Assembly (NCBI RefSeq): GCF_002854065.1
Contig: NZ_CP024147.1
DNA length: 64,000 nucleotides
Reading direction: 5' to 3' (one strand)
Source of the DNA: Escherichia coli
GTDB taxonomy: Bacteria > Pseudomonadota > Gammaproteobacteria > Enterobacterales > Enterobacteriaceae
This document shows positions 2,558 to 3,665 of this stretch, piece after piece. Positions within the stretch are counted from its first letter, which is position 1. The number at the start of each line of letters is the position of its first letter. The notes below the pieces were generated by a model. It had not been told where the DNA came from. It did no database searches and worked only from the letters and a program-made list of their open reading frames with translations. The translations under genes were made by a program, and so were the position numbers.

Positions 2558-2778
2558 TGCAGGAAAGCAGGCTGGAGTTACCCAGCCTGCAGTGAAATTA
2601 AACTGTCGTCGCTTTCACTCTTTCTTTATAGATGATTTTTTTGATGCCATCGTTCTACGTAAGAGATAATAAACGTTGTTAGTTCTTTTATTGTTAAGCT
2701 TATCCCAATTATCTGGAATTCCTTATCCTGTTTTTTTGTGTGGAGTAATAATTTCTGCACATCTAACCATTATTAAAT

Positions 2779-3264
2779 TTAATAATAAGTATCGGGTTTG
2801 TTACGATAGAATTTTTCTATATCCTCAAGAATATGCTTTGCCTTATTGCCTGTGACTTTCTGAGATTCAATTATAGTATCGTTAAATTCTAAAGTTAAAG
2901 AGAACTCTTTTTTTCCGCTTTGTGTAAGTTTAACCTTATATTGATTACCAATATCAAATAAAAAGGTCCTGTAATGAGAATAATCACCTTTAACCTCCTC
3001 GGCAAAACAGCAAAGCGTGCAAATATACATAAAATCTTTCTTACCCCTGATTTTGTTAACTAAATCAATAAATGCGTGAAAAACTGTACTTGCAATAGAA
3101 CTTGATACTTCTTCTCCAGGTCTACAAAAATCTTTTGCAATTTTTAACTGTGTTTCTATATATAAAAAAAGATCTATGGCATAAGAGATATCTTTGTTAT
3201 TTAGTGCATCTAGCTCAACAGGTAAAGATGTCATTTTGTTGTTGTTCACATATGATATATTCAT
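2779..3264 (-). CDS. hypothetical protein, AT-rich gene of unknown function (161 aa from Met-14 of the 174 aa ORF)
   Basis: Uninterrupted minus-strand ORF 2779..3303 in a markedly AT-rich segment between tyrB and aphA; internal ATG at 3262-3264 is preceded by GGAG with an 8 nt spacer; no recognisable motif, no signal peptide. Confidence 0.5.
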   Translation of the reverse strand: MNISYVNNNKMTSLPVELDALNNKDISYAIDLFLYIETQLKIAKDFCRPGEEVSSSIASTVFHAFIDLVNKIRGKKDFMYICTLCCFAEEVKGDYSHYRTFLFDIGNQYKVKLTQSGKKEFSLTLEFNDTIIESQKVTGNKAKHILEDIEKFYRNKPDTYY

Positions 3265-3665
3265 ATCATCATCTCCATCGGGAGTAATAAAATTAGTCAC
3301 CATTGTAGGGTAGGGTTCTGGTCAATCAGAAATCATCTTTATAAACTTCGATTGTTTTTGTAATGCTGTATCATTAAGTTCATTAAATCGTACAGCAGAT
3401 AAATGTTCTATCAAATTTCGCTCATTTGCAGAGGATTCATCATAATAAACGAAATATTAATGTATTCTTACATCGAGCAATAACCATTTTTTTACAAAAA
3501 AACGACAGGAACGTATTTACTGGGTTAAATATAATCATCCTGCTTTTCATCACAAAAACCGCAGATAATCCTTCCTTTCCCCTGCAGCTGGCGTTATGGT
3601 CAGATGGTTTTTGCAACAAATCTCACAATAAAAAGTTTCAACATACTGACTATTTAGGGAAAAAT

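Follow-up and report, generated by a model that had tools for sequence, protein, structure and literature searches.

A full-length yjbS reading frame in the AT-rich tyrB–aphA islet of Escherichia coli, probably a silenced orphan gene of which K-12 retains a truncated remnant

Gene content and composition of the tyrB–aphA interval

The DNA analysed here (the window) is a 64,000-nucleotide stretch of the E. coli contig NZ_CP024147.1, in which the gene order alr (32–1111), tyrB (ending at 2557), an AT-rich gap, aphA (from 3666), yjbQ, yjbR and uvrA corresponds to the 4.27-Mb region of K-12. The GC fraction of 200-nt segments was 0.29–0.34 over positions 2601–3600, compared with 0.50–0.58 in tyrB and beyond aphA, in line with the strong AT-richness described for this interval in the first-pass annotation of the window. 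The low-GC islet has sharp edges and a G+C content far under the genome average. The following features were recognised at the locus:

2558..3526, no strand: AT-rich islet of about 970 bp and about 30% GC, defined by composition, between the tyrB stop codon and the aphA upstream region
2567..2590, no strand: 9-bp GC-rich hairpin GCAGGCTGG-AGTTAC-CCAGCCTGC just past the tyrB stop codon, read from the sequence
2779..3264, minus strand: full-length yjbS ORF of 161 codons with its stop codon at 2779–2781, from the ORF list, alignments and strain comparison
2908..2914, minus strand: A7 run, codons G117–K119, a recurrent inactivation site
3125, minus strand: G of codon 47 (TGT, Cys), deleted in K-12-type strains according to the alignments
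3178..3195, minus strand: 18-bp unit (KDISYA), single in the window and tandemly duplicated in 167-aa alleles, an in-frame length polymorphism
3265..3303, minus strand: in-frame 5' extension MVTNFITPDGDDD giving a product of 174 aa, with no Shine-Dalgarno sequence before the ATG at 3303
3273..3276, minus strand: Shine-Dalgarno sequence GGAG, 8 nt before the ATG at 3264–3262, read from the sequence and kept in all aligned strains
3304..3526, minus strand: AT-rich leader 5' of the yjbS ORF, with short ORFs (10 aa; 30 aa at 3322–3414)
3527..3665, plus strand: conserved aphA upstream region, outside the islet, common to B2-type E. coli and Salmonella

Judged from its sequence, the hairpin at 2567..2590 is likely to terminate both the tyrB and the yjbS transcript, which are convergent; a terminator scan did not call it because there is no T-run on its 3' side. 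A promoter scan of the leader returned 7 promoter-like sites against 5.7 expected, that is, the chance level, and the short ORFs of the leader look like remnants that are not maintained as coding sequence. A second gene upstream of yjbS (3322–3445) was considered and rejected: a 16-bp insertion in two of the aligned strains (L009 and L010) breaks its frame, and the conceptual 44-aa peptide matched only the tyrB–aphA locus. The islet contained no terminal repeats, and no RNA family of Rfam matched it.

Outside the islet, aphA (3666–4379) carries a nonsense mutation in the window (W180*, TGG to TAG at nt 4204, stop codon at 4203–4205) that truncates the product at 179 of 237 residues, and RefSeq marks the aphA (acid phosphatase) gene of strain 100416 as a pseudogene with an 'internal stop'. 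The nearby AT-rich gene yjcF (16812–18881), for which no relation to the islet was found, is split by IS1 (InsB-like ORF at 17415–17918) into halves at 18141–18881 (246 aa) and 16812–17354 (180 aa, pentapeptide-repeat-like). The 10-kb segment of 60–62% GC at 53000–63400 is the phn (phosphonate C-P lyase) operon, with phnC, phnD, phnL, phnM and phnP recognised, and is ordinary for E. coli.

The yjbS frame is intact in the window and broken in K-12

The intact minus-strand ORF was found exactly as the first-pass annotation had described it, with an outer ATG that gives 174 aa (2779..3303) and an inner ATG at 3264 that gives 161 aa. The ribosome-binding site that had been called plausible belongs to the 161-aa start (GGAG, 8 nt upstream); none precedes the 174-aa start. 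Because the ATG at 3303 lacks such a site, and because gene callers and the K-12 annotation begin the protein at MNISYV, the extension is probably not translated; the annotated start of K-12 yjbS is the same ATG as that of the 161-aa form. The ORF has a GC content of 30.0% and a GC3 of 24.8%, compared with a GC3 of 52.8% for tyrB and 54.6% for aphA. It lies between these two genes and is transcribed opposite to both, and this arrangement was identical in all strains that were fetched.

The product of K-12 yjbS (b4621) is annotated as a 67-aa, uncharacterised "protein YjbS". The two loci share position, strand, start codon and ribosome-binding site, and the DNA of the interval is 97% identical; the K-12 gene ends after 67 residues, whereas the frame in the window continues to 161. 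The first 46 residues align with K-12 YjbS, the protein beginning MNISYVN and matching until the K-12 frameshift. In a DNA alignment of ten strains, two 1-bp deletions inside the ORF set the K-12-type strains apart: one removes the G of codon 47 (3125), and the other shortens the A7 run (2908–2914) by one A. The codon-47 deletion alone yields the 67-aa YjbS, the final 21 residues of which are out of frame, and when both bases are put back into the K-12 allele 161 codons are restored with no further lesion. The suspicion that K-12 yjbS is a truncated remnant was thus borne out by the alignment: the 67-aa protein is what is left of a longer ORF cut by two 1-bp deletions. An ORF broken by stop codons here and in K-12 alike, which would have argued against this reading, was not what we found, the frame being intact in the window and shifted in K-12. 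The shorter tyrB–aphA distance ascribed to K-12 in the first-pass annotation was mistaken, since the segment matching positions 2540–3680 measures 1139 bp in K-12-type strains and 1141 bp here.

Intact and broken yjbS alleles in E. coli

The distribution of the islet was determined by megablast of positions 2540–3680 against 5426 complete E. coli genomes. The islet was present at a coverage of at least 80% in 4328 of them (4328–4351 across searches, about 80%), and about 1100 of the 5426 lacked it. Alleles were counted with 50-nt queries centred on each indel, for which megablast seeds only the matching allele. At site 1 (the G of codon 47), 2807 genomes were intact and 1524 carried the K-12 deletion, and these 4331 genomes make up the whole islet-carrying population. 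A 10-bp deletion of the O157 type that spans the A-run and results in a product of 119 aa was found in 309 genomes. The exact K-12 A6 allele was present in 1498 genomes, a number taken from the band of at least 99% identity only, the A6 query having seeded on all alleles.

The ORF itself was read in 30 genomes sampled at even spacing from the first search. Eleven were intact, one with 161 aa and ten with 167 aa owing to the in-frame 18-bp duplication; the broken copies comprised eight of the K-12 type, two of the O157 type, two with other A-run frameshifts (126 and 128 aa) and one with an IS1 insertion. Six genomes had no islet, so that the gene was intact in 11 of 24 carriers. A second spread sample contained the same classes, plus a further IS1 insertion and a partial deletion. 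By the 30-genome sample, about 45% of carriers, or roughly one third of complete genomes, hold an intact gene, and more than half of the islet carriers have a broken one. It had been proposed that the window carries either a strain-specific or an ancestral longer version of the K-12 gene; with an islet in about 80% of genomes and an intact gene in about one third, the first does not hold, and the second, an unbroken ancestral form, fits. The allele of the window is itself rare: only 18–20 genomes were at least 99% identical to it, and strain 100416 (human stool, Gambia) was the sole genome with 100% identity to the window segment. Intact alleles were also found in O111:H8, O145:H28 and ETEC strains.

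Many of the lesions cluster at the A7 run, which K-12-type strains and strain SC492 have as A6 and which the O157-type 10-bp deletion removes; in strains 81EVA and 720632 a frameshift lies just past it, the GKNEFSL of intact alleles being kept only as far as GKN. In a phase-variable (contingency) gene, the length of a repeat tract would turn the gene on and off within lineages. The A7 run is hit repeatedly by frameshifts between lineages, yet the tract is short and its states are seemingly fixed within clades, and K-12-type alleles have a further lesion outside it. Altogether there have been at least five independent inactivations: the K-12 deletions, the A-run frameshift alone, the frameshift just past the A-run, the O157 10-bp deletion and the IS1 insertions. 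The islet seems to be a preferred target of IS1. IS1 lies inside yjbS in at least two natural strains, RM14721 (L013 670–1367) and 361, and an IS1 insertion into K-12 yjbS at the same position (coding nt 193 of 204) has been reported in clones of two macrophage-evolved populations (PMC4999529).

Evidence for coding and strength of constraint

An ORF of this length is not expected from the composition of the interval: when its 1109 bp were shuffled 2000 times, the longest ATG-initiated ORF had 51 codons on average and at most 142, and none reached 161. The frame is also conserved across strains, as had been asked of it, with at least 12 distinct alleles elsewhere, including those with the in-frame 18-bp duplication. 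Intact alleles are separated by dS values of 0.15–0.18 (maximum 0.18). Since about 5% of the possible single-base changes (77 of 1449) create a stop codon, a frame without selection should not have survived such divergence. The complete lack of nonsense changes among these alleles was not counted as evidence, since they had been chosen as intact. The length change that separates intact alleles is in frame (18 bp), and the broken alleles carry just one or two recent lesions each.

The strength of selection was less clear. Pairwise dN/dS ranged from 0.23 to 1.39 and was mostly 0.4–0.6, with one pair at 1.39, and of the segregating changes 24 were synonymous, where neutrality predicts 17.3, and 49 nonsynonymous, where it predicts 52.8 (one-sided p = 0.07). 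This synonymous excess is suggestive of purifying selection and is not statistically secure. Our reading of these sequence comparisons is that yjbS is a genuine protein-coding gene under a constraint that is weak (dN/dS about 0.5) and by now often lacking.

The same data bear on a different explanation, namely that no protein function exists, that the islet acts as DNA, for instance as a promoter island or a site of H-NS nucleation with an insulating or tuning effect on tyrB and aphA, and that the open frame is the leftover of a recently dead gene. It is favoured by a dN/dS not significantly below 1 and by repeated frameshifts, a deletion and IS1 insertions without apparent cost, among them the insertions in the macrophage-evolved clones (PMC4999529). 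It has difficulty with an AT-rich frame of 161–167 codons that is open at a dS of 0.15–0.18 despite the high share of stop-making mutations, with an allele length change that is in frame, with broken alleles whose one or two lesions are young (the K-12 copy being repairable to 161 codons), and with a start codon preceded by a good ribosome-binding site and a product for which a compact fold is predicted (see below). We regard it as improbable.

Predicted properties of full-length YjbS

The 161-aa product is hydrophilic, with a mass of 18.7 kDa and a pI of 6.3, and its maximum 19-residue Kyte-Doolittle hydropathy is 0.89, hence there is no membrane segment; full-length YjbS is predicted to be soluble and cytoplasmic. 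In line with the first-pass annotation, which had seen no recognisable motif or signal peptide, the 161- and 174-aa proteins had no match in Pfam even at E ≤ 10, nothing significant was obtained from NCBIfam (BamG at E = 0.03, far below the cutoff) or PHROGs, and no PADLOC defence-system protein model was matched (0 families). The best match among PDB sequences had E = 0.87, which is not significant, a full-length profile of eight alleles searched against 1.84 billion representative proteins recovered only fragments of yjbS itself, and fold searches of solved structures and of viral structures (BFVD) gave nothing significant.

The structure prediction that had been suggested as a check was run with AlphaFold2 on a shallow alignment of only 8 close sequences and gave, with moderate confidence (pTM 0.62, mean pLDDT 61.8), a compact alpha+beta fold. 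Helices were predicted at residues 23–45, 55–71 and 78–84, followed by five antiparallel strands (88–138; sheet pLDDT 77–87) and a last helix (140–154), while residues 1–27 were disordered and the N-terminus is rich in Asn, Ser and Thr. Independent AFDB models of yjbS family members superpose on this model at TM 0.6–0.8. A Foldseek search against AFDB50 returned the yjbS family first and then about ten uncharacterised proteins of E. coli, Shigella and Salmonella with 135–531 aa (including Q8XC25, B7NEY7, A0A2X2HGS0 and A0AAN3TTQ2), at a TM of about 0.45–0.50, an identity of 10–17% and weak E values (3e-5 to 3e-3). These modelled similarities may point to an unrecognised fold family among enterobacterial orphan proteins, or composition may account for them. 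Given its small size, the lack of a cofactor or catalytic motif and the few invariant polar residues, we would guess, with low confidence, that YjbS binds another molecule rather than catalysing a reaction.

The first-pass annotation had named toxins, immunity proteins and phage-defence factors as functions typical of such sites. A role of this kind found no backing: there was no PADLOC hit, no conserved partner ORF, no copy on a phage or true plasmid, no paralogue and no significant structural match, and neither the sequence nor the structure searches linked the protein to any known family of toxins, antitoxins or immunity proteins. The islet holds no conserved partner gene, its other ORFs being of 10–59 aa and not conserved in frame. 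The genes ybbC and ydcD, which we take to be orphan immunity-type genes in AT-rich remnants beside rhs elements, offer a comparison from which yjbS differs in having no upstream Rhs or CdiA toxin fragment, no immunity homology and no paralogues.

A wider form of the idea is that YjbS is a conditional accessory factor whose losses reflect differences in niche, not decay, with orphan immunity or antitoxin-like activity, a single-gene anti-phage function or that of a substrate for the cryptic ETT2 type III secretion system as candidate roles. A frame held open across deep alleles, intact copies in about 45% of carriers including O111:H8, O145:H28 and ETEC strains, the disordered N-terminus rich in Asn, Ser and Thr and the Foldseek matches among enterobacterial proteins are all compatible with it, as is the depletion of K-12 yjbS transposon mutants under colistin (PMC9687012). 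That depletion, however, was seen with the truncated allele of K-12 and was shared in the same data by further AT-rich loci bound by H-NS, which suggests an effect at the level of the DNA or a technical one. With no match in PADLOC, Pfam, NCBIfam or PHROGs, no conserved partner within the islet, no phage or genuine plasmid copy and no paralogue near Rhs or CDI loci also weighing against it, we consider the conditional factor rather unlikely, if less so than a role of the islet as DNA only.

H-NS binding and silencing of the islet

The K-12 copy of the interval has been described before from the side of transcription. Panyukov and Ozoline (2013, PMC3661553) listed tyrB/yjbS (K-12 position 4266514, 318 bp) as one of 78 "promoter islands", AT-rich regions that bind RNA polymerase and give almost no productive transcript, with abortive transcription; in their Table 1 the K-12 tyrB/yjbS region is H-NS-bound in two ChIP data sets, and it is marked as lying within a predicted genomic island and as a predicted foreign gene. 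The islet resembles the promoter islands in its AT-rich composition and in being absent from Salmonella, and its K-12 copy is one of those listed. These authors treated the region as DNA beside a tiny hypothetical gene, and its coding capacity and the pattern of intact and broken alleles were not noted. Abortive instead of productive transcription from promoter islands (PMC3661553) is a further point for the islet acting as DNA.

The annotation of the interval as a typical H-NS-silenced site agrees with the H-NS binding of the K-12 copy (PMC3661553); since the K-12 DNA is 97% identical, we infer the same silencing for the strain of the window. An H-NS consensus motif was not enriched over the islet. 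In K-12, yjbS received unusually few transposon insertions (PMC5821084), and we, not the authors of that study, suggest that this sparsity is consistent with protein-coated DNA.

Origin of the islet and alternative occupants of the junction

In Salmonella the tyrB–aphA spacer measures 186 bp, of which only the aphA-proximal part of about 130 bp is common to the window, with similarity starting at about 3529–3544; positions 2558–3526 are therefore an insertion relative to Salmonella. Horizontal acquisition, as proposed in the first-pass annotation, agrees with this insertion in E. coli and with the prediction of the K-12 copy as foreign (PMC3661553). No yjbS relative was found in representatives of other species, which were scanned with two peptide patterns only, and AphA-based look-ups aimed at further members of the genus Escherichia led to Salmonella and recombinant E. 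coli only. Distant blastn searches over E. coli revealed neither a paralogue nor a second copy of the islet, and phages and genuine plasmids contained no yjbS copy.

Matches labelled as plasmids were mislabelled chromosomes or contaminants and do not support a mobile origin. A contig of "Flavobacterium paronense" (NZ_JAUFQN010000013.1, 9.5 kb), the single match in the scan of genome contigs, was likewise dismissed as E. coli K-12-type contamination with homopolymer errors. The 17-kb "Klebsiella oxytoca plasmid" NZ_CP069917.1 carries a K-12-type yjbS and looks like contamination with laboratory E. coli.

Among the genomes without the islet, strain S12 (B2-type) was found to have 13.6 kb between tyrB and aphA, coding for a sensor kinase, a sigma-54 regulator, a transporter, a dehydrogenase and a second sucAB-lpd-sucCD set. 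This insert is the kgu (alpha-ketoglutarate utilisation) genomic island, described as c5032–c5041 in uropathogenic E. coli (Cai et al. 2013, PMC3694859). The similarity of S12 to the window breaks off at the tyrB stop codon (about 2558) and starts again at about 3527, hence in this strain the kgu island lies between the same end points and replaces the islet. Five more islet-lacking genomes of the first sample matched the window only at the aphA end of the query. In about a fifth of genomes the kgu island would take the place of the whole islet, as read at the junction of one strain. The two elements share the junction and, in that one genome, the end points; they have no sequence relationship, and the kgu island differs in its size of 13.6 kb, its GC content of about 50%, its two-component system and metabolic operons and its demonstrated fitness role. 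That the islet can be swapped for the kgu island implies that aphA does not need it, which argues against the islet serving only as DNA.

Two further observations concern variation around the junction. Strain S12 also carries pnuC and an AAA-family ATPase gene between alr and tyrB (L025 15964–17522); both are absent from the window, so the alr–tyrB junction is variable too. Two E. coli metagenome contigs (L030 and L031) are 97–98% identical to the window in alr and tyrB and 95% in the islet, and 87% in aphA, 75% in yjbQ and 84% in yjbR; judged by these identities, they look as if they had received foreign DNA from the right edge of the islet onwards.

Annotation of intact alleles in RefSeq

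In strain 100416, identical to the window, RefSeq records only a "frameshifted" pseudogene of 205 nt (L001 2021–2225), and alleles of 167 aa are split into an N-terminal piece marked as "frameshifted" and a C-terminal "hypothetical protein" of 83 aa (for example L003 1740–2243; also L014–L019). On reading, the ORFs flagged as "frameshifted" are actually intact. That the pipeline leaves the long ORF uncalled may be counted in favour of the islet acting as DNA; evidently, the pipeline measures intact alleles against the truncated K-12 protein, and because this stump carries the name "protein YjbS", intact alleles are flagged or split. Extrapolation of the 30-genome sample puts the number of affected genomes at roughly 1900 among the 5426 complete ones. 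As a result, the 161/167-aa protein is nearly invisible to pangenome and proteomic work. The literature that mentions yjbS contained no discussion of the full-length gene, the allele spectrum or the annotation artefact, whereas the locus, the K-12 stump and the kind of element, a familiar one, are already known.

Discussion

We consider it probable that yjbS is an orphan gene restricted to E. coli that sits in an H-NS-silenced islet, was long kept open and is now dispensable and repeatedly lost. An AT-rich islet would have been acquired by E. coli, or the gene would have been born there; selection would have preserved the yjbS frame through the greater part of the evolution of E. coli and would be weak now. 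By analogy with K-12, H-NS would coat the islet and keep yjbS essentially silent in ordinary growth. With present selection weak, yjbS would be an accessory gene that strains can do without and that is gradually disappearing, the full-length form being the ancestral one.

A bolder proposal, which we hold to be very unlikely, is that YjbS is a selectively maintained conditional protein that founds a fold family with the roughly ten enterobacterial orphans and has a specific role, such as that of an orphan immunity protein or an ETT2 substrate. If this were true, YjbS would have been overlooked in K-12 work, where the reference copy is broken and the annotation propagates the broken copy as the norm.

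For the biology of E. coli, the probable history of a silenced orphan gene makes yjbS a small case of the life and death of an orphan gene inside one species. Should a conditional function prove real, strains with intact alleles such as that of the window, and not K-12, would be the ones suited to its study.
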